From positions 109,853 to 141,852 of the forward strand of contig JBFRWN010000044.1 of the NCBI GenBank assembly GCA_051439605.1: DNA of 32,000 nt, read 5' to 3'. Position 1 is the stretch's first letter. The number at the start of each line of letters is the position of its first letter. The DNA comes from Synechococcus sp. GTDB lineage: Bacteria > Cyanobacteriota > Cyanobacteriia > Thermostichales > PCC-7336. Shown piece by piece: positions 317-32,000 of the stretch. Made by a program: the position numbers and the translations under genes. The notes beneath the pieces were generated by a model that made no database searches, was not told where the DNA came from, and saw only the letters and a program-made list of their open reading frames with translations.

Positions 317-3300
317 TTAGGTCTCTACTGCTCCTAAAGTCTTCAGCACTGACTTTTGCGCTTGACTCAATCCCGTCACACCATCGATCGCCATCCCTTC
401 GTAGGGGCGATCGGCGCGCAGCCGCTGCAGACAGTCCCCCGTCTCCACATCCCATATAGCAATGGTGGCATCTCGACTGCCGCTAATCAGGCGATCGCCC
501 GAAGGCGTCAGGGCCATGGTTTGGACCCAATTGCTGTGGGCAGGCCAATTGGCCACCTGCTTTCCAGAAGATACATCCCACCACTGCACGCTGCCATCGT
601 TGCTGGCGATCGCCAACCGCTCTCCGCTGGGGCTAAACACGAGCGACCACACCCAACCGCTGTCCACCGCCCAGGTTTGCAAGCAGTCTCCTGATTCGAT
701 GTCCCAAATCCTTACGGTTTCATCTGTGCTCCCACTGGCGATCAGACGCCCGTCGGGGCTACAGGCTAAGGCATACACCCACCGACTGTGGCCGTTCAAG
801 ACCGCTAATTCTTCCCCGGTTGCAGTATCCCAGATGCGCACCGTTTTATCTTTGCTACAGCTGATCAGCCGCTGGCCATCGGGGGTGAAGCGAAGGTCAC
901 GCACCCAGTTTTTGTGATTCTGCAATACGCACCGAGTTTGTCCGGTGGCCACATCCCAGAGGCGGATCGTTCGATCGGTGGAACCGCTGGCCAGTAAGGA
1001 GCCGTCATGGTTCCAGGCTACAGCAATCACCCAGTTGGAATGTCCCTTCAGAACGCGGGCCACTCGACCGCTATTCACATCCCACAGCTGCACATCGGGT
1101 CCATCGCTGCCACTGGCTAAATACCGGCCATCCGGTTTCCAAGCCACGCATTGCTCTCGGTGAGCGTGGCCGGGGAGAGTACGCACTACCTGACCGGTGG
1201 CAAGGTCCCAAAGCTTGAGGGTGTAATCGGTGTGGCTGCTGACTAATAGAGTGCCGGCTGGGTTGAGTGCCACTGCCTGTACCCAGTTGGTGAAACCATG
1301 CCATGTCTTGAGGGTGCGACCGGAGGCGGTTTCCCAGAGCTTCACGGTGTGACCTTCGCAACCGCTAGCTAGCCTTCGACCATCGGGGTTCCAGGCTACC
1401 GTCCGCACGCAGTTTGTATGACCCGGTAACGTCCTGCAGATCTCTCCGGTGGCCACTGTCCAAAGATTTATGGTGCGATCGTCGCTACCGCTGGCCAACA
1501 GGGAACCATCAGGACTCAAGCTGACAGAGCGCACCCAATGTCGGTGCCCCTTCAAAATACGAATCGGTTGCCCCGTCCTAGCATCCCAGAGGCGTATGGT
1601 GCGATCGTCGCCACAGGAGGCAAGGAAGCGACCTTCTGGGCTGTAGCTGACAGAGCGCACCCAGCCCTGGTGCCCCTGCAGTGTTTGCTTGAGCTGACCG
1701 GATTCGACATCCCAAAATCGTACCGTACAGTCTTCACCAGCACTGGCGAGGGTCTTACCATCGGGGCTGAACTTTACCACTCGGACGGAACGGGTATGAC
1801 CCTCCAGAACCCTCAGCAGCTCGTAGGTCCTGGGATTCCACAAACGCACCGTGGTGTCTTCACTGGCACTGGCCAACAACGTAACGGCGGGATTAAATAC
1901 AACCGATCTCACGGTGTCGGTATGGCTGCGCAGCGTCGCCAAAGTATTGCAGCTGGAAGCATGCCACAGTTTCACCGTACGATCCGCACTGGCACTGGCC
2001 AATAGGTAAGGTGCAGTATCCCCCGGACGACCTATTTTCATGGGGGCAAAGGTGACCCCCCAAATGTAATTGGCATGGCCCTGCAGGATGGCGTATTGCT
2101 CGTTAGTACGAGTATTCCACAGGCGAATCTCGGCATTATTATCGGAAGTGGCGAGATAGTTTCCGTCGGGGGAAAAGCTCACCGAAAGAATGCTGCCAAA
2201 GGTGTTGGTAAAAACCGAGTGGGACAGATTGCAATGACTGAAATTGCTCTGTTGCAAATTAGCTTGGCGGAAATCTGCATGCCAAATGGTCAACTTAGAA
2301 AAATCATAACCAGCCAGGCTAATGCCTAAAACACTGCAAAGGTTAATCACATTCCCTGCACCGTATCCCGAACGATAGGCCACATCATTTCTCAACCAAT
2401 CAAATACCTGCAACAGTTTTTGAGTAATCGCCTGCAAAGAACCACCAGTGGACGTTAACTGGTCTGCAATCGGTTTCAGGATGAGCAGCTTCTGGACGTC
2501 GCGGATGTATTCTGCTGCTGTAGCTTTGGTCAGGGCGACACTTTGCAGCAGAGGTAGCCCGGCAATCTCGTCCAAGTTCCCGGATAATTCTATGGATAGG
2601 TGTTGAACGAGACGATCGGTAACATATTCCATCACAACTGGCTGTTGGGTGTAACCTCCCTCCTCCTGCTCAATCAGCGATCGCCAAGTGAGGGATTCTA
2701 AGGTCTGCAAGACAGTGGCCCGAGACACCGCAGGCACTAAGTCCTCTGCTAGTTGTGTCAGCATGACCGGCTCGCGGGCAGTCGCCAGCCAATACATCAC
2801 GCTTTGTTCGAGAGGGGACAGGCGGATAAACTGCTGATCCAGCAATTGTCGAATCGTGTTGAACAGGGTGATGTCCTGTTCGAGGAAGGTGGCAACATTA
2901 CCGTCGAACAAAGTTTGGATGGAGGTGGCTACAATTTTTAACGGTAGCGGGCTATTTCCGTAGCGATCGCACAGCATTTCGAGCTGTGCCTCAGTGCCCT
3001 CCAACCCCCCTCGGTGCAGCAACTCCATCGCCATATCCGCACAGCCTCCCAATTGGAGGGAACGAACGGACAAGCCCACCCCTTCCAAGGCCGCAATTTG
3101 AGCGGGTTTCTCGCGACTGGTTAATGCAACGCAACTTTGGTGAGAGGTTTCTCCCACTAAGCGAAATAGCTTGCCATACAGCTCGTACTCCGGACGATAC
3201 CGTCCCGCTTGGCCCGCCTGCAGAAGAGTCTCAATATTGTCCAAAACAACCAGGCAACGCTGCTTGCGAAGATGATGAATGGCCCGATCTACCGTGGCTT

Positions 3301-3892
3301 CTTTATCCTGACCGTTCGACAAAAAATCAACTAACTCTATGAGGAGATCGTCCAGGGGGGGACCATTACGCAACGATCGCCAGAAAACACAATCAAACTG
3401 CGAAGCGATTTGTTGACCTAGCTTAATGGTGAGGGAGGTTTTGCCCATCCCCGCCATCCCGAACAAGCCCACCAGCCGGCACCGATCGCCCACAATCCAC
3501 TGCTGCAGTTGCTGCAGCTCTTGCGAACGGCCATAGAACATCGAGACATCGGCAGCATCCCCCCAATCTTGGCGGCTGACGTCATTGTCGCGGGCCACAT
3601 GCATTGGGGGGGTCTCATCTGGCCGCACGTAATCGACCGCCTCAAGAGTTAGTCCAAACGCCTTAAAAAAAAACTCAATGGTTTGTCGATCGACCGGCAC
3701 CCGTCGAGCCGTCACTTTTGTCAACGTGTTGGGACTGAGTCCCGTACGCTCGCTTAGCTCCTCAAGCGTAAACGAACGGCTGTAGTTGTCCCGCAACTCA
3801 ACCGCCTCGCGCGCCTGCTGCAATTTTTGCCACCCTCTTGGGCTTAAAATTACGCCCCTTTTGCGTCGAGTGCGCTTGACAGCTCCGGTCAT
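317..3892 (-). CDS. STAND NTPase signalling protein: XRE-type HTH + NB-ARC P-loop + short pentapeptide-repeat stretch + 14 WD40 repeats
   Basis: The ORF track gives 317..3937; the ATG at 3892 ([13 protein letters not shown]...) looks like the more plausible start. HTH: [41 protein letters not shown]. Walker A is [13 protein letters not shown], Walker B-like is CLVVLDNIE, followed by ALTSREKP. Pentapeptide stretch: [23 protein letters not shown]. Fourteen units of the form GH..WV.SV.FSPDG..LASGS.D.T..LWD follow. Confidence 0.85.
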
Positions 3893-4351
3893 TTTGTTCT
3901 CAAGTCGCAGTTTGCAATCTATTTTGCATATTTCCACACAAATTTCTGCTTAAGTTGGGATCTTAAGTTGGGTTTTTTGCGTATTGTTATCTTTCTTTGC
4001 AGTTGCGAATACAAGAGTTAGGAGGGGGACAAACAAAATCGCCCGCTGTCCATAAAAAATACTACAAAAAATAAATATTTTGGCATAAATCAACACCAGT
4101 GGACGCAAAATAGATGAGAAAAAGTCGAGTTTCTCTCATTGATGAAATCTTGGGTAATACAAGCTGTTATCTCGCCTTAAATAGCCCTCTTGTGGAGTTT
4201 GGGCACCTACAGATCTAGGTATCTCTAGCGCCTCTGTTGGTATGCGCTGTCGCAGCAGGCAAGTTTTAGCAAGCACAACGAACCAACCCGATCTGCTGCG
4301 GCCTAATACACCGAATTCTGTAGGCCATACTATTGCCCCAATCGGAAGGAT

Positions 4352-11395: not shown

Positions 11396-11581
11396 GTATA
11401 CGGACCTGTGAAAATTGCCCTCTCTCTTCATCGCGCTCTCTATCTAGCCACATTGAACTATCTGTAGTGCATTAAGTTCATACTAAAAAATATTTCCCAC
11501 CACATATGGTGTAAAGGAGCTATTATTGGCATCAAGTGCTCCCGAACGCACTGTTTTGCCAATTGATTGTTGAAGCAACTT

Positions 11582-12871
11582 ATGGCACCAAACGACCCCA
11601 ACCTAGAGGCCCTCAAGACTCGCGTCCATCAGCAGGCGCAGGCATTAGCGGAGTCAGAGTCGCTTGCCATGCAAAACATGCAATATGCAGCCGAGTTGGA
11701 ACAACAACTCAATAGTTGCCAAGCTATGTTAAACACCCAAGACGTAACTGATGACAACATCAGCCTTTTGCAAACCCAGCTAACCGCCAGCAAACAGCAG
11801 TTGGAGCACCTCCAAGCTGATGTTGAGCGGGTGGTAGGGGAGCGAGATCGTCTAAGGCAAGACTTTGATACCGCACAACAGCGGTGCCAGCAACTGGAGC
11901 AATCGGCGAATAAAATTGCCAAACTCCAAAGCATTGCCGCCACCTTGAAGGTGGAACGGGACGAGCTAGCCCAGAAGCTTGAACAGGCTAAAACTGCGGT
12001 TGCGAACGTGCACTCAACAGAGCGCACGCTACAGCAAGTTCAGCAAAGCCAAGCAGAGCTAAAAGATCGAACACAACAGGTCACCCACGAGCGAGATACC
12101 ATGGCCAAACAGCTAGAGGAACTACAAGCTCAACTTGAGGGGGGAGAGTCAGAGCAGTTGAAGGCTGCTCAAAGGCGGCAAGAGGTCGCCGAGGCCCATC
12201 ACTACGTTCTCAAACGTCAGTACGAATCATTGCAAGAGCGGGTCAAAGAGCTGGAGAAGGAATGCGCCCAAGCCCATGCCCAGGCTCAAGAGTGCGATCG
12301 TGAAATGGCTCAGATCGAGCGCGCCAAAATCGAACTATTGGATCGATGCGATCGCCTTGAGGCGAACAATCAAACTCTACAGGCGAACAATCAAACTCTG
12401 CAGACTCAGCTCGACAGCCTCCATCAAGAAACAAGTCCTACACACACAACCCCAGAGCCCCTCTCAGTCGATTTTGTGCAACTGGAAAATGCCAAACAAG
12501 TTCTGCAGCAGGAACTGGTGGCACTGAGAGCCGAGAACCAAGCCCTGCAAGCCCAATTAGACGAACATCGCGATCGGGGAAGCGAGGAGAAAAAGGAGGC
12601 GACAACTGACGAACCCACAGATAAATCGTTCGTGCAATCTGTACGGGAAGCCACGGCTAGCTGCGACGTTCCTCCTAGCCCTAGCATCTATGATGCTAAG
12701 TTACCCTCCATTCCTCCACTGGAGATAATGGATCGCACTGTACCCAGTTCCAAGAATTTCGACCGCAGGGTGTTTAACCTAGCAGCTGCTTCAGCAGAAT
12801 CAGTCACCCCCAACAATACTATTGTTCGGCCCAAAGTCGTAGAACTGCCCGCATTCGTGCGGAGACGGTAG
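11582..12871 (+). CDS. Coiled-coil-rich protein with disordered C-terminal region ending in ...VELPAFVRRR
   Basis: The track ORF starts at TTG 11567; the ATG at 11582 (MAPNDPNLEALK...) is more plausible. About 340 aa are Q/E/L/A-rich heptad sequence, followed by a Pro/Ser-rich tail. A terminator hairpin follows. Confidence 0.7.
   Translation: MAPNDPNLEALKTRVHQQAQALAESESLAMQNMQYAAELEQQLNSCQAMLNTQDVTDDNISLLQTQLTASKQQLEHLQADVERVVGERDRLRQDFDTAQQRCQQLEQSANKIAKLQSIAATLKVERDELAQKLEQAKTAVANVHSTERTLQQVQQSQAELKDRTQQVTHERDTMAKQLEELQAQLEGGESEQLKAAQRRQEVAEAHHYVLKRQYESLQERVKELEKECAQAHAQAQECDREMAQIERAKIELLDRCDRLEANNQTLQANNQTLQTQLDSLHQETSPTHTTPEPLSVDFVQLENAKQVLQQELVALRAENQALQAQLDEHRDRGSEEKKEATTDEPTDKSFVQSVREATASCDVPPSPSIYDAKLPSIPPLEIMDRTVPSSKNFDRRVFNLAAASAESVTPNNTIVRPKVVELPAFVRRR
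12362..12403 (+). repeat. In-frame 21-bp tandem duplication (2 units, 1 mismatch) encoding ANNQTLQ-ANNQTLQ
   Basis: The two units are GCGAACAATCAAACTCTACAG and GCGAACAATCAAACTCTGCAG. Each unit is exactly one heptad of the coiled coil. Confidence 0.9.
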
Positions 12872-13080: not shown

Positions 13081-14379
13081 GTGAAGCGACCGATTGCAGT
13101 CGATCTGTTCGCCGGAGCTGGGGGAATGAGCTTGGGATTCGAGCAAGCTGGGTTTGAGGTCTTGGCAGCGGTGGAAATTGATCCCATCCATTGCGCCGTG
13201 CACGAATTTAATTTCCCTTTTTGGCGGATGTTTTGCCGCAGCGCAGCAGACATTACCGGAAGGGAGATTCGTGAAGATTCCGCCATTGGCGATCGCTCCA
13301 TCGATGTTGTGTTTGGTGGTCCACCCTGTCAAGGATGCTCCACCATTGGCAAGCGGGCGTTAAACGATCCCCGCAATGGGTTGATGCTCCACTTCCTAAG
13401 GTTAGTGCTGGAACTTCAACCCCGCTATTTCGTAATGGAAAACGTCAGAGGGCTGACAATCGGTCGCCATCGCCAGCTGCTCAAGGAGCTGATAGCAAGC
13501 TTCGCAGACAGCGGCTATCAGATCGTGCAGCAGTACCAAGTCTTAAATGCAGCCCATTTTGGAGTACCGCAGGATCGACAGCGCTTGTTTCTGATGGGGG
13601 CACGAGCGGGTGAACCTTTGGCCCAATATCCCAATCCCACTGTCCTCCCTGCCCGACCCATCCATAATGCAGGATTTCAGGAGGGAGCGACTTCGGAAGA
13701 GCTACCCAACGGCCCGACGGTGGCGGATGCCATTGCCGATCTCCCCGATATCGAACAATATGACGTACTGTTCCAGCAGGATTGGATGGGGGTGGGCCTC
13801 GCCCCGGAAGCCAGCAACTATGCCAAACTTTTGCGCGGCGATCTCCACTCCCCACAAGATTTCTCTTACCGACGTCAGTCTCCCTACACGGGGTTAACTT
13901 GCAGCGGTCGCACCCGCCACAGCGTTGCCACCATCGAGCGCTTCCGCCGCACCGAGCCCGGCACGGTAGATCGCGTCAGTCGCTTTCTCAAACTGCATCC
14001 CGATGGCCTTTGTAATACCTTGCGGGCGGGAACCCCCAGCAGTCGAGGGGCGTTTACATCTCCTCGTCCCATTCATCCATTCACCCCCCGCTGCATCACC
14101 GTCCGCGAAGCAGCTAGGCTCCATTCATACCCTGATTGGTTCCGCTTCCACTCCACAAAGTGGCATGGCTTTCGCCAAATTGGTAATTCTGTGCCGCCGC
14201 TACTGGCGCGGGCGGTGGCCTCCCAGGTGATACAGGCCTTGAACATCTGCCCTCGGCGACCTCGCAAAATATATCCTTTAGGGGACCCTCAACTGCTACA
14301 TCTCAAAATGACTCAAGCATCTGCCCGCTACAACGTCAGCAAACACACCATTGCCCCGCGACAGCGAATTGAAGTCTAA
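13081..14379 (+). CDS. dcm: DNA (cytosine-5)-methyltransferase, apparently orphan
   Basis: 432 aa with a GTG start. Motif I is DLFAGAGGMSLGF, motif IV GGPPCQGCS, motif VI ENVRGL and motif VIII QDRQRLF. Motif IX is ITVREAARLHSYPDWF and motif X is GNSVPPLLA. No endonuclease-like or Vsr-like ORF is on either side. Confidence 0.9.
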   Translation: MKRPIAVDLFAGAGGMSLGFEQAGFEVLAAVEIDPIHCAVHEFNFPFWRMFCRSAADITGREIREDSAIGDRSIDVVFGGPPCQGCSTIGKRALNDPRNGLMLHFLRLVLELQPRYFVMENVRGLTIGRHRQLLKELIASFADSGYQIVQQYQVLNAAHFGVPQDRQRLFLMGARAGEPLAQYPNPTVLPARPIHNAGFQEGATSEELPNGPTVADAIADLPDIEQYDVLFQQDWMGVGLAPEASNYAKLLRGDLHSPQDFSYRRQSPYTGLTCSGRTRHSVATIERFRRTEPGTVDRVSRFLKLHPDGLCNTLRAGTPSSRGAFTSPRPIHPFTPRCITVREAARLHSYPDWFRFHSTKWHGFRQIGNSVPPLLARAVASQVIQALNICPRRPRKIYPLGDPQLLHLKMTQASARYNVSKHTIAPRQRIEV

Positions 14380-18956: not shown

Positions 18957-21272
18957 GTGAAAGCGAGCAGACGTGATTTTTTAGTCAGAAGCCTCTTGGG
19001 GACAGCCGGGATCGCCGTTGCCCCCCAGATCGAAGCAGCAGCCCAACGCATATTGGGCCAATCTCAAACCTGGGGATCGGCTATGGCCGCCACCGCGGGT
19101 CGCAAATTTGCATTGTTGGTCGGGGTCGATCGCTACAGCAACGGCCTCGACCCCCTACAGGGATGTGCCACGGATGTCACTTTGCAGCAGGAGGTACTGG
19201 AACATCGGTTTGGGTTTTCCAACATTGCCACCCTGATCGACGAAGCTGCCACACGCGCAGCGATCGAACAAACATTCATTGACCATCTCATCGAGCAGGT
19301 GGGACCCAACGATTCCGTTGTTGTTCACTTTAGTGGCTACGGACGGACTCTTCCCGATGGCAGTCCGCTATTGATGTCAGCCGATGCTCAGGCTAATCCT
19401 GCTGGTGGGGAAATTACCGATCTGCCTCTAGAAACTCTCTACCAGCTGGTTCAAGCCCTCAACACCAGATTAGTCACCGTTGTTTTAGATTGCGGCTTCG
19501 CTACAGAAACCACCGCAGAATTAGGCAATTGGCGGGTGCGATCGCCGCTACCTCTTGCGAGCTTAGAAGTGGCTGATGGAGATGACTCTGATAGTTATCG
19601 CCATCCAGATTACCGATATGCAAAAGCGGTACTAGAGCGGCAAACTAGCATCCACGAGAAATACCGCACTAGCCCCCCCCCTGGAAGCTTTAGCTACGGC
19701 CTCATCAGTCGAGCGCAGGGCAACTGGATAATGGCAGCGGCCCCTGGCCAAGCTGCGGCAGAGGGCTTTTGGAATGGATTTAGTGCCGGCTTGCTGACCT
19801 ACCTCTTGACCCAGTCCCTGTGGGAAATGGGGGGCGTCGATGATTGGCAACAGCTCTATCAACTGACCAGCGCAAAAGCCCAGCAAGCGGCGGTTCCTGA
19901 CGAGCGGCCCATTTTGCAAGGGAAAGGCAATAGCCCCAATCGCCCTTATTCCCCGGATCCGATCGCGATCGGTCCAGCAGGGGCTTCGGGGGTTATCCAT
20001 GCGGTGCAAGATGACCGCACTGACATCTGGTTGGGAGGAATCTCCCCAACTGTCCTGCCTTTTTTGAAGCCAGGGACCCGGTTTAAGGATTGGAACGACG
20101 GTAAAGAGTGGGTGCTGAAATCCCGGGAACGGCTTACCGCTCGTGTAGAGCCAGCCGAGGATCTTTCCCCGCCCACCCCCCTGTCCTCAGAGGACGCTGC
20201 CACCCAGCAGCCCGCCAGTCAGCTGCCTGCTATCCCAGCAGCCGCCTCCACTGGTGGGGCAGCTTCTCAGAGAACGGCATCCCCCCTAGGAGCTCTGGTA
20301 ACGGAAGTCCAACGGGTTATTCCATTGGCGCGGTTAGCCATTGCCCTCGATAACAGTTTGCAGCGGATTGAAAAAGTTGATGTCAGCAGCGTCCTGTCCA
20401 ACGCGAATCTGGCCGGAGAACTGCATGCGCTCGAAACCGCTCAATTGCAGGAGCGTGCGGTGGACTGTTTGTTTGGCCGCATGACACCCGATTTACAGGC
20501 ACAACTGACTCTGGAGAACCCTCCAGAAGTCGGCAGCTACGGCCTGATGTGGTCCGGTCGCGTTCCTCTCTACGATTCCTTCGGCAATGCTGGCGAAGCC
20601 CCCAAAAGCGCTATCAAACGGCTCATTCCCCGGCTGCAGCATCTACTAGCGGTTAAACGCCTGCGCGCAACTCTGAACGACAATGTTTCCCAGCTCTCGG
20701 TGGTGCTAGAGATTGGCAGTGGTGAAACTACCTGGCAAGCGGGAACCGCTCCTGCCGCCACCCAAACCCCCCTTGTCCGCAAGCTGAAACGAGGTCGAGT
20801 GGGCATTCCGCAACTCAAGGTGGGAGCACCATTGGTTTACACCCTTGAAAACCGAGGAAACACCCCCATTTATGTGGTTTTAGCTGTCCTCGATCGCCTC
20901 GGACGATTGTGCGTGTTAGCGAACCAAGGGGGAGATAACGCAGGAGCTTCCATAACGATTGCCTCCCACAGCAAGGTGGATCTGGGGCAAGCCTTGGGGA
21001 TCGGTTTCGCAGTGCGCGCGCCACAAGGACTGACCGAGGTGTTTGCGATCGCTAGCAGTAACCCGATGCCTGCATCGGAAGATGCCCTCCAAACTGTCGC
21101 GCAAGCGATGGGGATCCGCAGCGGATTTGTTATGCTCCCCCAGCCCATAGACTTTGCCCAAACCGTATTGGCGGATCTGACGTCCCCTGGAACAGCCGAA
21201 GGGACCCGGCTACTCGATCACGCCCAAAGTGCCACGATTGGACTAGCCTACACCGTAGTCCAATCTGTCTGA
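18957..21272 (+). CDS. Tat-signal-bearing caspase-fold (peptidase C14) protein with a substituted catalytic dyad (pseudo-orthocaspase) and a ~580-aa uncharacterised C-terminal region
   Basis: GTG start. The N-terminus MKASRRDFLVRSLLGTAGIAVAPQIEAAAQ carries a twin-arginine motif SRRDFLV. The p20-like domain reads KFALLVGVDRYS...LQGCATDV...ATRAAI...VVVHFSGYGR...VTVVLDCGFAT. Tyr128 occupies the His position of SGHG, and D-C-G-F replaces D-x-C-H. Confidence 0.75.
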   Translation: MKASRRDFLVRSLLGTAGIAVAPQIEAAAQRILGQSQTWGSAMAATAGRKFALLVGVDRYSNGLDPLQGCATDVTLQQEVLEHRFGFSNIATLIDEAATRAAIEQTFIDHLIEQVGPNDSVVVHFSGYGRTLPDGSPLLMSADAQANPAGGEITDLPLETLYQLVQALNTRLVTVVLDCGFATETTAELGNWRVRSPLPLASLEVADGDDSDSYRHPDYRYAKAVLERQTSIHEKYRTSPPPGSFSYGLISRAQGNWIMAAAPGQAAAEGFWNGFSAGLLTYLLTQSLWEMGGVDDWQQLYQLTSAKAQQAAVPDERPILQGKGNSPNRPYSPDPIAIGPAGASGVIHAVQDDRTDIWLGGISPTVLPFLKPGTRFKDWNDGKEWVLKSRERLTARVEPAEDLSPPTPLSSEDAATQQPASQLPAIPAAASTGGAASQRTASPLGALVTEVQRVIPLARLAIALDNSLQRIEKVDVSSVLSNANLAGELHALETAQLQERAVDCLFGRMTPDLQAQLTLENPPEVGSYGLMWSGRVPLYDSFGNAGEAPKSAIKRLIPRLQHLLAVKRLRATLNDNVSQLSVVLEIGSGETTWQAGTAPAATQTPLVRKLKRGRVGIPQLKVGAPLVYTLENRGNTPIYVVLAVLDRLGRLCVLANQGGDNAGASITIASHSKVDLGQALGIGFAVRAPQGLTEVFAIASSNPMPASEDALQTVAQAMGIRSGFVMLPQPIDFAQTVLADLTSPGTAEGTRLLDHAQSATIGLAYTVVQSV

Positions 21273-25360: not shown

Positions 25361-26351
25361 TTACAAGCTGATTAACGATGAAACTGCCTCCTGTGCCATT
25401 GCAGCAATCGTTTCATCAGTTGCTCTGGGTAAGCAGTAGTAATTTCCATTTGCCTGCAAAGCCAGCTCCCGTGCAAATCCTGCCGAGACAAACTTGCGAT
25501 CGGTGTCAATGAGCAATAGTTGCATGCCCAGGGCGCGAATTCTGGCCGCAATCTCCAGCAGTTCCTGTTTGATATCGGGCTGTTCTGCATTCGATTCGGA
25601 AACATGGGCTTGACGTAACGACCTCGATCCTGCGAAAAAATTAGGTTTCCCCCGCCAGCTTTGCCTCGGCGACGGCGAGTCAGCCGGGCAAAGTTTAGCA
25701 GAGTCGGATCGATCTCCATCGGTTTGGGGGGGATCTCAAACTCCTCTGGCAACGTTTCACCATCCTTCGCCAGTTCCACCCCCACCTGCAAATCCTCAGC
25801 ATTGACGATCGTTCGCCCCGATAGGGCCGCACGGGCCTTGGCAACCCATACTGCGCACAATTCCCCCCGGTGGCCCTCCACTTGGGCTCGCTCGGCTTCA
25901 GAGACTAAATAAGCGATCTGGTGCCTGGCGATGGCGACACCAGGCAGTAACTGCCGGGCAAGGGCAACTTGCAATTGCAGATTCTCAACGTCAGCCGCGT
26001 ATCGTTCCAGAAAAGCTTGAGGGTTGTCTTTGTCAGCGATCGCCCGATTTATCCCCTCAATCCGTTGCTCTACTGTTAGTGGGCGATCTCTGCCGACAAA
26101 CCCATGGCAAATAGGTCGAACAAGCGAGAGCGCAACTGTTTTTCTTCAGGATTGTAGGTGGCGATAAAGAGGGGCTTGCAAGGATGTTCGAAGCTATTGC
26201 CTTCCCGCTCGATGCGATTTCGCCCCTCCGTCAAGATGGTTAGCAGCAGATTGGCAATGCTGTCCTCCAGCACATCCAGTTCGTCGACGTAAACTACGCC
26301 GCGATGGGCTGCGGCTAAAAGCCCCGGTTGGAAAACGGTTTCATCCTGCTG
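25361..26351 (-). pseudogene. Heavily eroded Mg-chelatase subunit D (ChlD/BchD)-like pseudogene
   Basis: ChlD-like peptide is read in three different minus-strand frames. (i) 26351->26076: [89 protein letters not shown]. This is preceded by an in-frame TGA at 26352-26354, and there is no Walker A region. (ii) After a frameshift near 26080: [49 protein letters not shown]...HRGELCAVWVAKARAALSGRTIVNAEDL...[19 protein letters not shown]. (iii) After another shift near 25585: [72 protein letters not shown], with the TAA at 25363-25361. Most of the vWA/MIDAS domain is deleted. Confidence 0.7.
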
Positions 26352-26629: not shown

Positions 26630-27862
26630 ATGCTGAATCATCCAAAACACCAAGCTTGTCTTTGTGGGAGCAATGCAGAAGTCGTTAAAGCACTGACAGA
26701 AACAGAGAAAATAGTAATAGGAAGGGCTCTAGACTGCCAGATTATTTTCGACGCTCCCCAGGAGGATGTCAGCGTCTCCAGACACCATGCAGAAGTGCGC
26801 CCTCTGGCCGAGTCAGAGGATTGGGAAATTTGCGACCTCAACAGTGCTAACGGAACCTTCGTTAACGGACAACAATTGCATGGATGTTTAAGATTGACTC
26901 CGGGCGATCGCCTAACTTTTGGCCAGAGTCCACGGGAATTAGTTTTTGAAGTCCAAACGCTCCCGGCTATAGAGACGGGAACGGAAGTTTCTTCTCCGGG
27001 ACAGAAAGGTCCTTTGTCGAGGCCAACAAATCATCACCGTAGTATTCTCTCTCCTGGAAGCTGGTTTCCACCGTTACGATCCCCCATTCAAAGCTCTGAC
27101 TCAAAACCACGCTCAAGCTGGCAAGAGCTGTGGGAAAAAGGCAGATTCTCGTCGGTATTTATCTACTTAATACTATGTTTGATCGCAGTTTCGGTATCAG
27201 ATCGAGGCATTTCTAACGCACTTTTTACTGGATGCCTGCTAAGCATAGCCATTGCAACCATTTCTAGATTATGTGGCAAGTATAAGCCTTGGTGGCTGAT
27301 CTTAGGATTAGCCTCAATCACTGCGGGTTTAACAGTTGTGGGACATGACTTGTTACCCGATATCCTAGCTGTAAAAAACGGTATATCTATTGTAAGGCAG
27401 TTGATTAAGGCTCCTACAAAAGAGATAATCAAAGCACTACCTGTGCTAAGCATCTATTCTATGGGCAGAATGCTGCCTCGCGCTTTACAGAAGAGAATCA
27501 GAATTGTCGATCCTCTGGATGGAGTCTTATTAACAATTGCTTCAGCAATTGGGCTCGTAGTTGTTGAAAGTTATCATAAAGATCTTGCTCTCATTATTGC
27601 TGGAATTTTGCCCAATACTGCCGGGGATTTAGCTTATAGTGGAGTTTTTGGCTACTACATTGGCCTGAGCGCAATGAAGAGTCCTCGTCACCGTTGGAAA
27701 ATAATCGGATTTGGTTTTTTGCTGACGTCAGTGCTTCATTTTGTTCTAAATCTCAGATTTTTTCCAGTCGAGATTAGGATTTTGCTATCAATTTTAGAAT
27801 ATAGTCTGTTGATAACCTGTATTCTTAAAGGAATAGATGAAGCAGAAAAAATGAGAGCATAG
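26630..27862 (+). CDS. FHA domain protein fused to a C-terminal multi-pass membrane domain (tentatively PrsW-family intramembrane protease-like)
   Basis: 410 aa; GAGGG lies before the ATG. FHA: IVIGRALDCQIIFDAPQEDVSVSRHHAEV...WEICDLNSANGTFVNGQQL...LTPGDRLTFG. A Ser/Pro-rich linker follows, then at least 7 hydrophobic segments. The motifs APTKEIIKALPVL, IGLVVVESYHK and LTSVLHFVLNL loosely resemble the PrsW EExxK / E / HxxxN motifs, with the first Glu replaced by Lys. GC is visibly lower than the backbone. Confidence 0.7.
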   Translation: MLNHPKHQACLCGSNAEVVKALTETEKIVIGRALDCQIIFDAPQEDVSVSRHHAEVRPLAESEDWEICDLNSANGTFVNGQQLHGCLRLTPGDRLTFGQSPRELVFEVQTLPAIETGTEVSSPGQKGPLSRPTNHHRSILSPGSWFPPLRSPIQSSDSKPRSSWQELWEKGRFSSVFIYLILCLIAVSVSDRGISNALFTGCLLSIAIATISRLCGKYKPWWLILGLASITAGLTVVGHDLLPDILAVKNGISIVRQLIKAPTKEIIKALPVLSIYSMGRMLPRALQKRIRIVDPLDGVLLTIASAIGLVVVESYHKDLALIIAGILPNTAGDLAYSGVFGYYIGLSAMKSPRHRWKIIGFGFLLTSVLHFVLNLRFFPVEIRILLSILEYSLLITCILKGIDEAEKMRA

Positions 27863-27982
27863 ATCTGGCTTAAAATTCACGATTGCAGAATCAGGCAAGC
27901 ATGCTTTAGATACATTAGCTCGCTTGTAATCAGTTTAGGCTTGATGTTCTCACGCTACTAAGCAGCACTCATTTTGAGAATA

Positions 27983-29137
27983 TTACCGTTTCTTAAGATG
28001 TAAAGAGACATGGATGATTTGCTGAAGAGATTCGGGAACTTCTAAATAGATTGCATTCGCAATCTCTCCGAAAATAGTTGCTAAAGAACCAGGATATATC
28101 ATAATTGACAAGCCATATTTAACAAGACAAGCAGTCAGAGCAAGCTCTTCGATTAAATATTGGCGAGACAATTCTACAAAGTTTTCGAAATTGTCAGCAT
28201 TCCGTTCGATGTGCCGAAGTGTAAAGTCATCGGCACAAGCTTTAACTGAAAGGGCAAATCTGCTATCTTGGGCAACTAAATCTTCTATTCGCTTGAGATT
28301 TTTATAATACTCATCTGAATTTTCGATCTCTGAAGCACAGATCGTATCGATATGGCAGGTGTCTGCATGTCGTTCAAAGATGCCGCTTGACTTGTCTATG
28401 AATTCTCTCCCGAGAAGCAGTGCTTTGGTACGTGCTCGCCTTTCGCCAATACCTCTGTGGATTTGCAATGTATATTGATGAATGCTATCAGCAATAAATA
28501 CCGTGCATCTCTTGTAATGATTTGCGATCCAATCTACTGTTGCTATCAACCTTGGCATTGAAAATTTTTTGTTTTCTAAACTTACTCCTAAAAAGCAATG
28601 TTCGTTCTGATTAAGCTTTTTCCGAGCAGTATTCGGAATAACATTGCTCACCAGTGCGCGATATCTAGAGCGAGTTAAAAAGGATATTTCCTGTCGCGGT
28701 TTTATCAGCTTTTCGTATTCTCTATACTCCATTCTCAAGAGATGTCGGTAAGACCCTAGATAACAGGAAATTTCTTGATTTTGGAGCAAATCTTGCGCAA
28801 GTATGGTTTCCATCTGATAGATATTTCCGAAGGGGGGGATGGTACCATACTCGCACCCGGGAAATAACTGGCTAGCTTCTTGTCGATCGATCAACCTAAC
28901 CTGGGTTGTCCCTAAAGCTTTTTGAAGAGATCCCAAATTAATTGCTAAACTCGCGGGGATCACCACCATAGCTTTGTGATGATGTTCGATTTCTACGATT
29001 ACAGCTTCAATTAGCTCCATTCCTAACATGGATTTATAGTCCGAAAGTTCCTGCTCTGTACAAGCTGGTGAATGTTCGATCGTTATATATTTGATCTTGT
29101 TCTGATTTAAAACATCCTGGACTTTCTGAATCATCAT
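27983..29137 (-). CDS. Fusion protein: N-terminal YbaK/ProX-type aminoacyl-tRNA trans-editing domain + C-terminal cyclodipeptide synthase (CDPS) domain
   Basis: 384 aa. Residues 1-~148 match the tRNA_edit fold: KVQDVLNQNKIKYITIEHSPACTE, KAMVVIPASLAINLGSLQKALGTTQVRLIDRQEASQLFPGCEYGTIPPFGNIYQMETILAQDLL..EISCYLGS. Residues ~175-384 carry the CDPS signature. HCFLGVSLENKKFS holds Ser186 in the G-x-S catalytic context and Asn189. YLIEE gives Tyr327 and Glu331, and IMIYPGS gives Tyr348-Pro349. The Ser-to-Tyr spacing of 141 residues equals that of AlbC Ser37-Tyr178. Sampled 60-nt lines are about 25-45% GC, and there is no HIP1 site. Confidence 0.75.
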   Translation of the reverse strand: MMIQKVQDVLNQNKIKYITIEHSPACTEQELSDYKSMLGMELIEAVIVEIEHHHKAMVVIPASLAINLGSLQKALGTTQVRLIDRQEASQLFPGCEYGTIPPFGNIYQMETILAQDLLQNQEISCYLGSYRHLLRMEYREYEKLIKPRQEISFLTRSRYRALVSNVIPNTARKKLNQNEHCFLGVSLENKKFSMPRLIATVDWIANHYKRCTVFIADSIHQYTLQIHRGIGERRARTKALLLGREFIDKSSGIFERHADTCHIDTICASEIENSDEYYKNLKRIEDLVAQDSRFALSVKACADDFTLRHIERNADNFENFVELSRQYLIEELALTACLVKYGLSIMIYPGSLATIFGEIANAIYLEVPESLQQIIHVSLHLKKR

Positions 29138-29149
29138 GACCGATAAATT

Positions 29150-32000
29150 CTATATGTCGTGACAGACTTCTAGTTCTTTTTTGGCTTCGGGATGCGTGGC
29201 TAGATAATCCTTTAGCCAATTGCATCCCTTGTCTATGAGTTCCTCGTAGCTGGCAATTGGCCACAGATAAGCAATTCCATTGGCTGAAGCAGTGACTATC
29301 TGTTCTCCATCGGGACTGAAGCTGGCGCTATGGACTGCATCGCCTTGATGATCCGTAAAAAGAGGGAATAGTTTGCCCTGCAAGTCCCACTGGCGAACGG
29401 AGCCATCTGCCGAGCCAGTGAGCAAATGCTTCCCATCGTGACTGAAACTGACGCTATGGACTGCACCTTCGTGGCCAGCGAATTCTTCTTGCAGTTGATT
29501 GGTCTTTAAGTTCCACAGGCGAGCAGTTTTATCCGCCGATCCAGTCAATAGATAGTCTCCTTCAGGACTAAAGCTAACGCTCCAGATCCAGCCTGTATGG
29601 CCTGGGAATTCTTGCACTTGATTGCCCTGCAAGTCCCACAGTCGTGCCGTGCCGTCAGCCGATCCTGTCGCAACCTGCTGCCCGTCAGGACTGAATTGTA
29701 CACTCCATACCTCAGTCTTCTCGCCGACGACAGTTGCGAGTTCTATCACGTCTGCAACGTCTATAACCTCCCCTTGTGGACGATCTGGCAAGTCATAGAT
29801 ACGAACCGTGCCGTCAGACGAGCCAGTGACTAACTGCTGACCGTTGGGGCTAAAATCGACCCCCCAGACCCAATCCTTGTGACCAATAAATGTGGCTAGC
29901 TGATTCCCTTCTAAGTCCCACAAGCGGGCGCTACCATCTGCCGATCCGGTTGCAAGCTGCAGTTCGTTGGGGCTAAAACTCACCTCCAGTACCGTTCCCT
30001 CATGGCCGATAAAATTCGCTTGCTGATTCCCCTGCAAGTCCCATAAACGAGCGGTGCTATCTGCCGAACCTGTGGCTAGTTGCTGCCCGTTGGGGCTGAA
30101 ACTGGCGCTATAGATGAGACCCGAATGACCGATGAACTTAACCTGCTGCATATTCTTCAAGTTCCACAGTCGAGCAATGCCATCGGTCGAACCCGTTGCA
30201 AGCTGCTCTCCATTGGGACTGAACTCAACGCTCCAAACTTGGCCACGATGCCCTCTAAATTCTTCAAGTTGATCTCCCCGTAAGTTCCACAGGCGAGCTG
30301 TGCCGTCTTCCGAGCTTGTCACTAATTGCTGGCCATCCGAGCGGAACCGGATGTTATAAACCGGCCCACGGTGACCTCTCAATTCTTTCACTAGAGCACC
30401 CTGTAAATTCCACAGGCGAGCTCTTCCATCTTCTGCGCCGGTTGCTAACTGTTGCCCATCGGGACTGAAATTCACACTGTAGACTGCACCTTCGTGGCCT
30501 GTAAATTCGATCGAGCGATCGCCCTCGATATCCCACAGACGGGCGGTGCCACCTGCCGAACCCGTTGCGAGATACTTTCCATCGGGACTAAAGTTGACAC
30601 TCCAAATCCAGCCGTTGCTATCTGAGTATTCATGCAGGAGGTTGCCCTCTAAGTCCCACAGACAAGCTGTACCGTTATCCGAACCGGTAGCCCACTGCTG
30701 ACCATCGGGGCTAAAACTAATGCTCAAGACTTTGCCCTGAAGGTCCTTAGTGAATTGAATCAATCGATCGCCCTGTAAGTCCCACAGGCGAGCCGTACCA
30801 TCCCACGATCCAGTCGCTAGGTACTGACCATCGGGACTGAAACTGACAGTCTGGACTCTGTCCAGATGGCCTTCTAACTCTCGCAGTAGATTGCCCCGTA
30901 AATCCCATAAGCGGGCCACACCATCTTGCGAGCCGGTAGCCAGCTGCTGACCATCGGGACTGAAACTGACACTCCAGATTTCACTCTCAAGGGGTTGAAA
31001 TTGATTGCGTTCTTCAATCCCGTAAAGAATTTTCCCCAGTGCCATCACAACCGTCGGTGCTTGTGCAAGTAGATTTTTTCCTTCACCCATTCTTTGTGCA
31101 GACTGCATTGACATCAGCAAGGCTTTTAACTGTGAAGAGGTCTCGAACTCGCGCAAAGCCTCTAACCCCTCCCGTTCCAGTTTCAATGCGCGCAGTCTAG
31201 ATTGACTTTCCCTAAAGACCAGTCCTCCGACTATGGTTGAGACTGTCAGACCGATCAAGAGTACTGCCGTCGCTTGTTGAAGCCGCTGCTTTGCCTTGCG
31301 AGAAGCATTATTGACGTGTTCTAGTGTTTTATTCGCTTGTTCCAGGCTTTGGTTGACTCGTTCCAGTTTTTGATTGGCTTTTTCTACTTTTTCCTTAGCG
31401 TGGCGTAATTTCTCTTTCGCATCTTGTTCCGCCTTCTTTGCTCGACGCTCGCTCTTCAACGCTGTTTCAATGTCCTGTTTCTCTCGTTCCCGACTGGCAT
31501 CTAAAAACTGATTGTCGTCATCGCTCAAGCTTTTCCCCTTTGCCCATACCTTCGCCTGCTGCAATGCCTCGCCCCGCAACAGACAGGTATCATCCTGGCG
31601 GTTGGAGGCAAGCCAAGCATTGAGGAATGCAGCATAGGGGCGCAGGTTCGCCAATTCCCCTGCCACCCAGTCCAAGTCAAAAATGGCCTGGTAGATAGGA
31701 TTGCGGGAGCGGATTTTATCCCGATCCTTCACCACCAACCCCGACAGGCGCAGGTCAATCTCCTCCAGACTTTCCGTAGCGCTAACTTCCCCCTGTTGCA
31801 GCACCCGTTCGTAAAGAGCCAGGATGCGCCCTTTACGGGGGTTAGGATTGCTCAAATCCTCTCTTAGCAGGCGATCGCGAATAGTCTTCAGGTGCTCGGG
31901 AACATCCTGTGCCTCCCACTTGTAAAGGATGCGATCGCGCACCAATTGGGCTACCCGGTCTAGCTCTTCCCCAGCAGCGATGGGGGACTCGGACGATTGA
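29150..32000 (-). CDS. Large WD40 signalling protein, 5'-truncated by the window: C-terminal part of an AAA-like/STAND-type module + coiled coil + one TM helix + 14 near-identical WD40 repeats
   Basis: The track start at 31945 is a TTG. The frame stays open to nt 32000 (...SPIAAGEELDRVAQ|LVRDRILYKWE), so the gene continues beyond the window. LRLSGLVV...NPIYQAIFDLDWV...LRPYAAFLNAWLASNRQDDTCLLRGEALQQAKVWAKGKSLSDDDNQFL is the usual tail of cyanobacterial AAA-like NTPase modules. A Lys/Glu coiled coil follows, then the TM helix ATAVLLIGLTVSTIVGGLVF (31214-31273). Fourteen units of FSPDGQQLATGS.DGTARLWDLQGN....F.GH.G.V.SV come next. The stop TAG at 29152-29150 is 12 nt before the next gene's ATG. 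Confidence 0.85.
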   Translation of the reverse strand, partial: QSSESPIAAGEELDRVAQLVRDRILYKWEAQDVPEHLKTIRDRLLREDLSNPNPRKGRILALYERVLQQGEVSATESLEEIDLRLSGLVVKDRDKIRSRNPIYQAIFDLDWVAGELANLRPYAAFLNAWLASNRQDDTCLLRGEALQQAKVWAKGKSLSDDDNQFLDASREREKQDIETALKSERRAKKAEQDAKEKLRHAKEKVEKANQKLERVNQSLEQANKTLEHVNNASRKAKQRLQQATAVLLIGLTVSTIVGGLVFRESQSRLRALKLEREGLEALREFETSSQLKALLMSMQSAQRMGEGKNLLAQAPTVVMALGKILYGIEERNQFQPLESEIWSVSFSPDGQQLATGSQDGVARLWDLRGNLLRELEGHLDRVQTVSFSPDGQYLATGSWDGTARLWDLQGDRLIQFTKDLQGKVLSISFSPDGQQWATGSDNGTACLWDLEGNLLHEYSDSNGWIWSVNFSPDGKYLATGSAGGTARLWDIEGDRSIEFTGHEGAVYSVNFSPDGQQLATGAEDGRARLWNLQGALVKELRGHRGPVYNIRFRSDGQQLVTSSEDGTARLWNLRGDQLEEFRGHRGQVWSVEFSPNGEQLATGSTDGIARLWNLKNMQQVKFIGHSGLIYSASFSPNGQQLATGSADSTARLWDLQGNQQANFIGHEGTVLEVSFSPNELQLATGSADGSARLWDLEGNQLATFIGHKDWVWGVDFSPNGQQLVTGSSDGTVRIYDLPDRPQGEVIDVADVIELATVVGEKTEVWSVQFSPDGQQVATGSADGTARLWDLQGNQVQEFPGHTGWIWSVSFSPEGDYLLTGSADKTARLWNLKTNQLQEEFAGHEGAVHSVSFSHDGKHLLTGSADGSVRQWDLQGKLFPLFTDHQGDAVHSASFSPDGEQIVTASANGIAYLWPIASYEELIDKGCNWLKDYLATHPEAKKELEVCHDI

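Follow-up and report, generated by a model that had tools for sequence, protein, structure and literature searches.

Why would a cyanobacterium keep the gene of a predicted cyclodipeptide synthase (CDPS) directly behind the gene of a WD40-repeat protein? The question arises at the end of a 32,000-nucleotide (nt) stretch of Synechococcus sp. DNA (contig JBFRWN010000044.1, positions 109,853 to 141,852), which we call the window. An earlier note on this DNA had proposed a three-gene module here: a STAND/WD40 sensor, a YbaK-CDPS fusion as an effector drawing on aminoacyl-tRNAs, and a membrane partner with an FHA domain. We analysed the locus comparatively throughout, by sequence, gene order and predicted structure. 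Judged by sequence comparison, the WD40 region is inherited together with the CDPS gene as a unit, which has been grafted onto two unrelated nucleoside triphosphatase (NTPase) chassis. A functional link between the two is very probable. The three open reading frames (ORFs) and the domains assigned to them in the note are all present according to Pfam, TIGRFAM and an AlphaFold2 (AF2) model. The part of the window that carries the fusion and the WD40 gene reads as follows.

27983..29137, minus strand: YbaK-like + CDPS fusion, 384 amino acids (aa) (ORF, Pfam/TIGRFAM, AF2 and Foldseek)
28694..29137, minus strand: YbaK-like (tRNA_edit) domain, aa 1-148, with Glu44 at the catalytic Lys position (codon 29006-29008)
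27986..28660, minus strand: CDPS domain, aa 160-384, XYP subfamily, with Ser186 (codon 28580-28582), Tyr327, Glu331 and Tyr348-Pro349
29138..29149, no strand: 12-nt gap from the stop of the WD40 gene to the start of the CDPS gene (ORF coordinates)
29150..32000, minus strand: 3' part (aa 266-1214 of 1214) of the gene for an AAA_35 NTPase/coiled coil/hydrophobic helix/14xWD40 protein; ORF open to base 31999 at the window edge
29153..31204, minus strand: WD40 region, 684 aa, 14 repeats, member of the CDPS-linked WD40 clade (Pfam WD40 x14, BLAST ranks, neighbor-joining tree)
31214..31270, minus strand: hydrophobic helix TAVLLIGLTVSTIVGGLVF between coiled coil and WD40 region, Kyte-Doolittle 2.18, possible membrane span
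31679..32000, minus strand: C-terminal tail of the AAA_35 NTPase module (the AAA_35 match is aa 19-372 of the full protein)

WD40 region and CDPS gene

The two parts of the sensor protein have different relatives. The NTPase region of the window type (aa 1-510) shares 70% identity with its counterpart in the Crocosphaera protein at L057, a locus that lacks the CDPS. The WD40 region (aa 531-1214) is 29% identical to L057 and 48–57% identical to CDPS-linked proteins of the nSTAND1 type. Cyanobacterial WD40 repeats are consensus-like, and we therefore tested the specificity of this similarity. Searched against the database, the WD40 region had 1747 protein matches at E<=1e-100; identity to the query was 30–51% among the best 120 of the 1747. 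An identity of 48–57% as proof of orthology on its own was weakened by generic WD40 proteins that reach 45–51%, and rank and tree tests were used instead.

When the WD40 region of the window was used as the query, the top five BLAST matches were all CDPS-linked, three of them on the other chassis, and they stood ahead of the best 120 of the 1747; the same was found for the other ten queries. We then used these best 120 database matches as the background of a neighbor-joining tree (132 WD40 regions, 661 columns). All 11 CDPS-linked regions, 3 of the AAA_35 type and 8 of the nSTAND1 type, formed an exclusive clade in 30 of 30 bootstraps. The nearest outsiders to it, P0170 and P0151, have no CDPS neighbour. 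As an internal control served a second large WD40-repeat protein of the window (317-3937, minus strand, 1206 aa), whose repeats are 31–35% identical to the CDPS-linked WD40 region. The pairwise identities of the CDPS and of the WD40 region are correlated (r = 0.79, 55 pairs), and both average 0.55 across the two chassis. Since this clade holds the CDPS-linked WD40 regions and no others, WD40 region and CDPS can be regarded as a single evolutionary unit. The same clade refutes the note's reservation about a compositionally native WD40 gene and a possibly accidental linkage.

The hydrophobic helix in front of the repeats is a feature of the AAA_35 chassis, and among the CDPS-linked cassettes it precedes the WD40 region only there. 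L019, L028 and L057 have it, as do 66 of the 120 WD40 proteins of the background set; none of the eight nSTAND1-type proteins tested does. At L061:1479-10862, three AAA_35-WD40 genes lie in tandem, with their ends overlapping or abutting.

Recurrence of the cassette

We collected 19 distinct fusion loci by genome and metagenome scans and contig look-ups. The check proposed in the note, whether NTPase-WD40 genes recur beside YbaK-CDPS homologues, gave a positive answer. In 13 of the 19 loci such a gene lies directly upstream of the fusion, on the same strand and with a gap of 12–190 nt (window species, L019, L028/L060, L059, L001/L030, L002/L027, L003-L007, L021/L022, L025). These loci belong to Nostoc and Amazonocrinis (Nostocales), Prochloraceae, Leptolyngbyaceae and metagenome lineages. 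The linkage of the genes is not accidental.

Three arrangements can be distinguished. Type A consists of kinase-AAA_35, AAA_35-helix-WD40 and YbaK-CDPS genes with a convergent FHA-PrsW gene. Besides the window species (L018, L031), a second lineage has it (L019, L028/L060, L059). The proteins there are 61–72% identical to those of the window, and the flank is hemC, versus an atpG fragment and ScpA in the window species. Type B comprises ten distinct loci (L001/L030, L002/L027, L003-L007, L020, L021/L022, L025). In nine of the ten, an intact nSTAND1 + 14xWD40 gene (1057–1354 aa, no hydrophobic helix) lies 18–190 nt upstream of the fusion, and in L020 the WD40 copy is split into two WD40-family ORFs. 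The NTPase gene of type B is preceded by that of a Metallophos+SIR2_2 protein (SIR2_2 only in L001). Seven type-B loci also contain C3, a three-helix membrane protein of about 170 aa, placed ahead of the SIR2 gene in some and behind the CDPS gene in others; its position is permuted and its membership constant. Type C, found in Crocosphaera (L057/L058), has kinase-AAA_35, AAA_35-helix-WD40 (1713 aa) and convergent FHA-PrsW genes, and no CDPS.

C3 occurs only in nSTAND1-type cassettes and carries a WxLESQWKHFQRGFY motif (examples are L002:11319-11819 and L004:2961-3473, with five others). Pfam at E<=1 assigned it to no family, and PADLOC gave no match. The Metallophos+SIR2_2 proteins of type B had PADLOC matches to PDC-S60 and to an effector endonuclease. 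Known conflict-type effector domains linked to the fusion are SIR2_2 and Metallophos in the nSTAND1 cassettes; the window type has only the kinase and FHA-PrsW. PD-T4-6 matches of the kinase were discounted as generic kinase similarity. For CDPS, FHA-PrsW and C3, of which the PADLOC database has no model, it returned nothing.

Fragments of TnpB/Cas12f-like or OrfB_IS605 genes lie directly beside some cassettes (L020:5259-5573, L021:5188-5502, L057:3340-3999), a hint of mobility. No tailoring enzyme (P450, oxygenase, methyltransferase) was found in the cassettes. The distant fusion P0022 (30% identical), at L023:10001-12751, has a cytochrome P450 gene behind it. Since the P1 and P2 pockets of P0022 are identical to those of BcmA, this locus is probably a classical cyclo(Leu-Ile/Val) tailoring pathway. 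At L026:4720-8828, a fusion without NTPase lies beside AcrVA2-like, HNH_2 and AAA_15/AAA_21+DUF3696 genes, in what looks like a prophage or defence island.

State of the fusion enzyme

The fusion scores well above the cutoffs of CDPS profiles (TIGR04539, 103 bits, cutoff 45; PF16715, 58.7 bits, cutoff 27), and its aa 22-144 match tRNA_edit/YbaK (E 8e-16; PF04073, 58.7 bits, cutoff 25.5). It was modelled by AF2 with a pLDDT of 79.8 and a pTM of 0.70. In Foldseek, the model matched BcmA (9j61) with a template-modelling (TM) score of 0.93–0.95, the YbaK-like protein 3op6 with 0.82 and H. influenzae YbaK with 0.72. The CDPS domain also matches BcmA 9j61 in sequence (E 4e-42). We mapped the CDPS residues onto S43/Y185/E189/Y206/P207 of BcmA (PMC11580168). 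It turned out that S186, Y327, E331 and Y348-P349 are invariant across all fusions, including the 26 representative clusters at 50% identity. In AlbC, the catalytic set is S37/Y178/E182/Y202. By its conserved residues, the CDPS domain is catalytically intact. The Leu-type P1 pocket of BcmA (FGLGCIFM) recurs unchanged in several Nostoc fusions. In the window enzyme the P1 pocket is FGFAALTM and the P2 pocket is also unlike that of BcmA, and because both differ the product of this enzyme is not predictable.

The YbaK-like domain is in a different state. HMMER alignments and the family alignment place Glu44 ('IEAVIV') at the position of K46 ('FKTLLV') of H. influenzae YbaK. All aligned references have the Lys (E. 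coli YbaK 2dxa, H. influenzae YbaK 1dbu, APE2540 1wdv, Legionella 3op6). In a family survey, the residue of this column was E, D, A or N throughout the cyanobacterial fusions, and some distant fusions alone have kept the Lys. The domain matches 3op6 with E 2e-26 and keeps the GxxPPFG loop; the TIGR00011 score of the fusion is 36 bits against a cutoff of 153. Given the established role of the missing Lys, canonical deacylation is unlikely. Of the tRNA enzyme that the note had seen in this part, the tRNA_edit fold is there and the catalytic Lys is not. A protein search yielded about 20 fusion clusters, all cyanobacterial, and the next matches were stand-alone CDPSs of about 33% identity. As far as the literature searched shows, YbaK-like-CDPS fusions are an undescribed family (about 26 clusters at 50% identity), in which the editing domain has decayed and the synthase has not.

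Genes of the AAA_35 chassis

The 12-nt gap between the WD40 stop and the CDPS start is consistent with an operon; gaps of 18–73 nt occupy the corresponding place at further loci. The window holds the 2.85-kb 3' part of the NTPase-WD40 gene, and its 5' 794 nt lie beyond the window end. We followed the gene on L018, an 8.45-kb public sister contig that encodes an identical CDPS protein and whose overlapping DNA is 99.9% identical to the window. The full gene (L018:2808-6452) encodes 1214 aa with AAA_35 (aa 19-372), a coiled coil, the strongly hydrophobic helix and 14 WD40 repeats. A fourth gene lies just outside the window, 5' of the NTPase-WD40 gene, and encodes a 639-aa protein made of a Hanks-type Ser/Thr kinase and a second AAA_35. 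The kinase keeps the HRDIKPSN and DFG motifs and looks active. Both AAA_35 modules carry the NTPase motifs GK[ST] and hhhhDE, which read 'RQMGKSS' and 'FIDEID' (Walker B) in the NTPase-WD40 protein; the strict P-loop pattern GxxxxGK[ST] had no match in them. A P-loop NTPase and C-terminal WD40 repeats share one polypeptide in L018 (AAA_35) and in L001-L007 (nSTAND1). The name AAA_35 is a Pfam family assignment and does not by itself place the protein in the STAND clade proper. Thus the proposed module is real and conserved, though of four genes rather than three, the kinase-AAA_35 gene being off-window. Its supposed STAND/WD40 sensor is indeed an NTPase with WD40 repeats, of which the window holds the tail; the NTPase is AAA_35, no classical NACHT or nSTAND.

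The convergent gene on the other flank of the CDPS has the following features.

26630..27862, plus strand: polytopic membrane protein of 410 aa with FHA and PrsW-like parts; gene and CDPS gene convergent (ORF, Pfam)
26711..26923, plus strand: FHA domain, aa 28-98 (Pfam E 9e-18), phosphothreonine-binding motifs GR / SRHH / NG intact
27146..27814, plus strand: PrsW-like membrane region, aa 173-395, with degenerate motifs (KExxK for EExxK, GD for GH)
27863..27982, no strand: 120-nt spacer between the convergent FHA-PrsW and CDPS genes (ORF coordinates)

The membrane region of this protein has five hydrophobic helices and matches Pfam PrsW-protease over aa 220-380 (E 8e-11; PF13367, 42 bits, cutoff 23.5). 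Its NF033739 score is just 18 bits against a cutoff of 225. In the window protein, EExxK is represented by KEIIK and GH by GD, and HxxxN is kept as HFVLN. The cassette-linked paralogues (P0028-P0034) have EExxK, GH and mostly HxxxN replaced, whereas the wider cyanobacterial FHA-PrsW family retains all three. The FHA motif columns (GR/SxxH/NG) are conserved in the family alignment. Apparently, the membrane domain of the cassette protein may no longer be a protease, and proteolysis is doubtful. The protease-like domain expected here therefore stands as a Pfam match with motif residues lost.

FHA-PrsW orthologues occupy the same position in L019, L028 and L059, and one lies beside the chassis in L057. 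In L001-L017 tblastn found no FHA-PrsW match, and FHA-PrsW as a universal partner of the CDPS was rejected. Nostoc-type cassettes are without FHA-PrsW, and Crocosphaera has it without the CDPS; hence this protein belongs to the AAA_35 chassis and not to the CDPS. The partnership claimed in the note does recur with the CDPS cassette in the second lineage, within the limits of this chassis; the Nostoc type lacks it.

The noted compositional discontinuity was found as well. The GC content is 0.397 in the CDPS gene and 0.436 in the FHA-PrsW gene, and GC at third codon positions (GC3) is 0.377 and 0.38, against a GC3 of 0.5–0.66 in the neighbouring genes. Within the cassette, no gene is richer in AT than that of the CDPS, and this holds in both type-A lineages (L018:6465-7619, GC3 0.38 versus 0.51–0.63; L028:6401-7555, 0.30 versus 0.40–0.49). 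A consensus scan of the 120-nt spacer gave no convincing terminator, and promoter and terminator scans in general stayed at chance level.

Possible role of the cyclodipeptide

Each chassis has plausible outputs of its own, and one of them also exists with no CDPS and an unrelated WD40 region; the CDPS is therefore placed most economically in the input arm. We tentatively prefer this reading, in which the enzyme serves the sensor and the cyclodipeptide would be a signal rather than a killing effector. As expected from the CDPS family, the enzyme would condense two aminoacyl-tRNAs into a hydrophobic cyclodipeptide. The Lys-less YbaK-like domain would not deacylate, and may be a tRNA-end-binding or regulatory module instead. 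The WD40 clade would read the cyclodipeptide or, with less likelihood, the enzyme itself. In this manner the NTPase switch would respond, through the CDPS, to the condition of the charged-tRNA pool or to a cue passed between cells. Plausible outputs are the kinase with the FHA-PrsW-like protein on the AAA_35 chassis and Metallophos-SIR2 with C3 on the nSTAND1 chassis. The former may act by phosphorylation that is read by the FHA domain at the membrane, the latter by degradation of NAD+ or nucleotides and membrane damage. Should the hydrophobic helix really cross the membrane, a permeant small molecule alone would have access to the propellers of both layouts; a ligand that passes membranes would suit the layouts with and without the helix.

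The content of SIR2, Metallophos and NTPase domains and the island-like setting (low GC, TnpB fragments, different flanks) suggest a conflict or defence function. A bolder and more doubtful proposal is that the tRNA-dependent cyclodipeptide is the dedicated signal of an NTPase-switch immune or stress system. Disturbance of charged tRNA by phage takeover or starvation would then lead to a permeant diketopiperazine, which is read by the co-evolving WD40 double propeller. The reading would take place in the cytoplasm on the nSTAND1 chassis and possibly outside the membrane on the AAA_35 chassis. A permeant diketopiperazine could serve self-signalling and could also warn neighbour cells in filaments or colonies.

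Several points speak against the preferred reading as a whole. The clade signal is robust in the tree, but its margins are 5–10 identity points and its background is the best 120 of 1747 matches. The membrane span is predicted by hydropathy only. The defence role is drawn from domain content, and PADLOC is, as said, without models for three of the proteins. WD40 propellers usually bind proteins, not small hydrophobic molecules. A docked effector would explain just as well why WD40 and CDPS are inherited together. Finally, no adjacent NTPase-WD40 gene was seen in 6 of the 19 fusion loci (L008, L009, L023/L024, L026, L032, L033), although in L009 the fusion gene begins at the contig end and its upstream side is cut off. 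Such loci imply that the enzyme can work alone.

The rival that survives best keeps the CDPS as the effector of the earlier note. The WD40 repeats would sense an invader or stress, the NTPase would oligomerise, and the docked YbaK-CDPS protein would be switched on. It would then drain aminoacyl-tRNAs, with an abortive-infection-like translation arrest, and/or emit a toxic or alarm diketopiperazine. Its gene is indeed the last of the operon, 12 nt after the sensor gene, its catalytic residues are strictly conserved, and the cassettes hold conflict-type domains (SIR2_2, Metallophos, STAND-type NTPase) and adjoin TnpB fragments in AT-rich islets. Inheritance together with the WD40 region would be expected also if the propellers are a docking platform, and toxins that target aminoacyl-tRNAs exist (CapRel toxSAS, the acetyltransferases TacT/AtaT). 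However, the output genes of both chassis and the AAA_35 chassis without a CDPS argue against this role. STAND-type effectors usually vary while NTPase and sensor co-evolve; here it is the NTPase that varies. CDPSs are slow enzymes, which makes depletion of the pool doubtful, and in the window type WD40 repeats separated by a membrane-spanning helix could not touch a cytoplasmic CDPS. Co-segregation with the WD40 region across two chassis with their own outputs favours the input role, and we consider the effector role unlikely, although a serious competitor.

Still less probable is a guard or bait arrangement. The YbaK-CDPS protein would be a ligand held between the two WD40 propellers, like cytochrome c in Apaf-1, and its modification or tRNA loading would free the NTPase; the cyclodipeptide chemistry would be secondary. 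The co-inheritance and co-divergence of WD40 and CDPS agree with this, and a YbaK-like domain minus the deacylase Lys can evolve freely into a binding surface. Proteins are the typical ligands of WD40 double propellers (the Apaf-1 precedent is cited in PMC7159879). A pure bait would, however, have no need of invariant CDPS catalytic residues. The Lys is also lost in fusions without an NTPase neighbour (L008, L023, L026, L032), and the predicted membrane helix of the window type would part the partners.

Ordinary secondary metabolism, that is, a stand-alone cyclodipeptide gene beside abundant WD40/NTPase genes (1747 in cyanobacteria at E<=1e-100) whose neighbourhood is kept by shared ancestry only, would account for the fusions in unrelated contexts (L008, UPF0182 and malic enzyme; L023, P450; L032, NnrS/DUF455/ABC permease; L033, racemase and MCP), but is very improbable in view of adjacency across several families and two NTPase chassis, the permuted order of C3, the differing flanks (atpG/ScpA versus hemC), the WD40 clade exclusive to CDPS-linked genes and the lack of tailoring enzymes in the cassettes.

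Other genes of the window

The gene remnant reported beside the cassette was confirmed. It is a broken ChlI/MoxR-like ATPase gene (25372-26273, minus strand), and its sole detectable signature is AAA_lid_2. In its place the sister-strain contig L031, which over 4.5 kb is 98.7% identical with 3 gaps, has a longer ORF of 303 aa (L031:2106-3017), which implies that the decay is recent. About 5 kb from the cassette lies a gene of the conflict or cell-death type, which encodes a 771-aa caspase (Peptidase_C14) protein (18957-21272, plus strand). A C-5 cytosine DNA methylase gene (13081-14379, plus strand) has a 434-aa ORF without a Pfam match upstream (11567-12871), and the two may be a restriction-modification pair. 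No tRNA gene was found in the window.

Comparison with known systems

Sequence, structure model and catalytic residues all mark the enzyme as a bona fide XYP-type CDPS; it is not a canonical YbaK deacylase. It shares the catalytic Ser/Tyr/Glu/Tyr-Pro set and the fold with the XYP enzyme BcmA of the bicyclomycin pathway (PDB 9J61), the nearest CDPS with a solved structure. Unlike BcmA, it has an additional N-terminal YbaK-like domain, is not accompanied by tailoring genes and is embedded in an NTPase-WD40 cassette. Reported CDPS fusions have C-terminal methyltransferase, P450 or ABC domains (PMC5816076). With the trans-editing deacylases YbaK/ProX/ProXp, among which Legionella lpg1207 (3OP6) is the closest structure, the fusion shares the fold and the GxxPPFG loop. 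It differs from them in its tie to a CDPS and in the replacement of the Lys that is conserved in YbaK, ProX, APE2540 and 3op6.

The partner genes also have known relatives. Like Hanks-type kinase-FHA pairs, the cassettes combine a kinase with HRD/DFG and an FHA domain with GR/SxxH/NG; the cassette kinase differs by its fusion to AAA_35. To PrsW/CPBP-type intramembrane proteases the membrane domain is linked by its Pfam PrsW-protease match, but the cassette-linked paralogues have lost EE, GH and mostly HxxxN.

The known outputs of STAND-like NTPase systems are nucleases, NADases, proteases and pore formers, and the only role known for CDPSs is, to our knowledge, to start natural-product pathways. 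In the literature searched, we found no description of a YbaK-CDPS fusion or of a CDPS linked to NTPase/WD40 proteins, conflict systems or anti-phage defence. The word 'cyclodipeptide' has 0 occurrences in the Kaur/Aravind conflict-system papers and in the paper on diversity-generating retroelements (DGR) and STAND proteins. The cassettes resemble the STAND-NTPase conflict systems known from multicellular bacteria (Kaur, Burroughs, Iyer, Aravind 2020/2021; nSTAND1) and Avs in the P-loop NTPase with C-terminal repeats that form superstructures, in the links to SIR2, calcineurin-like phosphoesterase, kinase and FHA, and in cyanobacterial enrichment. They differ in that the NTPase has no N-terminal effector or EAD domain and the partner genes are separate; in the window, moreover, the NTPase is neither nSTAND nor NACHT. 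Through a CDPS that co-evolves with sensor propellers, programmed responses of cyanobacteria would be tied to the aminoacyl-tRNA pool or to a diketopiperazine signal. For the question of what bacterial WD40 sensors bind, this enzyme and its WD40 clade are a concrete, testable pair. If the signalling proposal is true, prokaryotic immunity would have in diketopiperazines a new class of messengers that are not nucleotides, and the cassettes would give CDPSs their first physiological role outside secondary metabolism.

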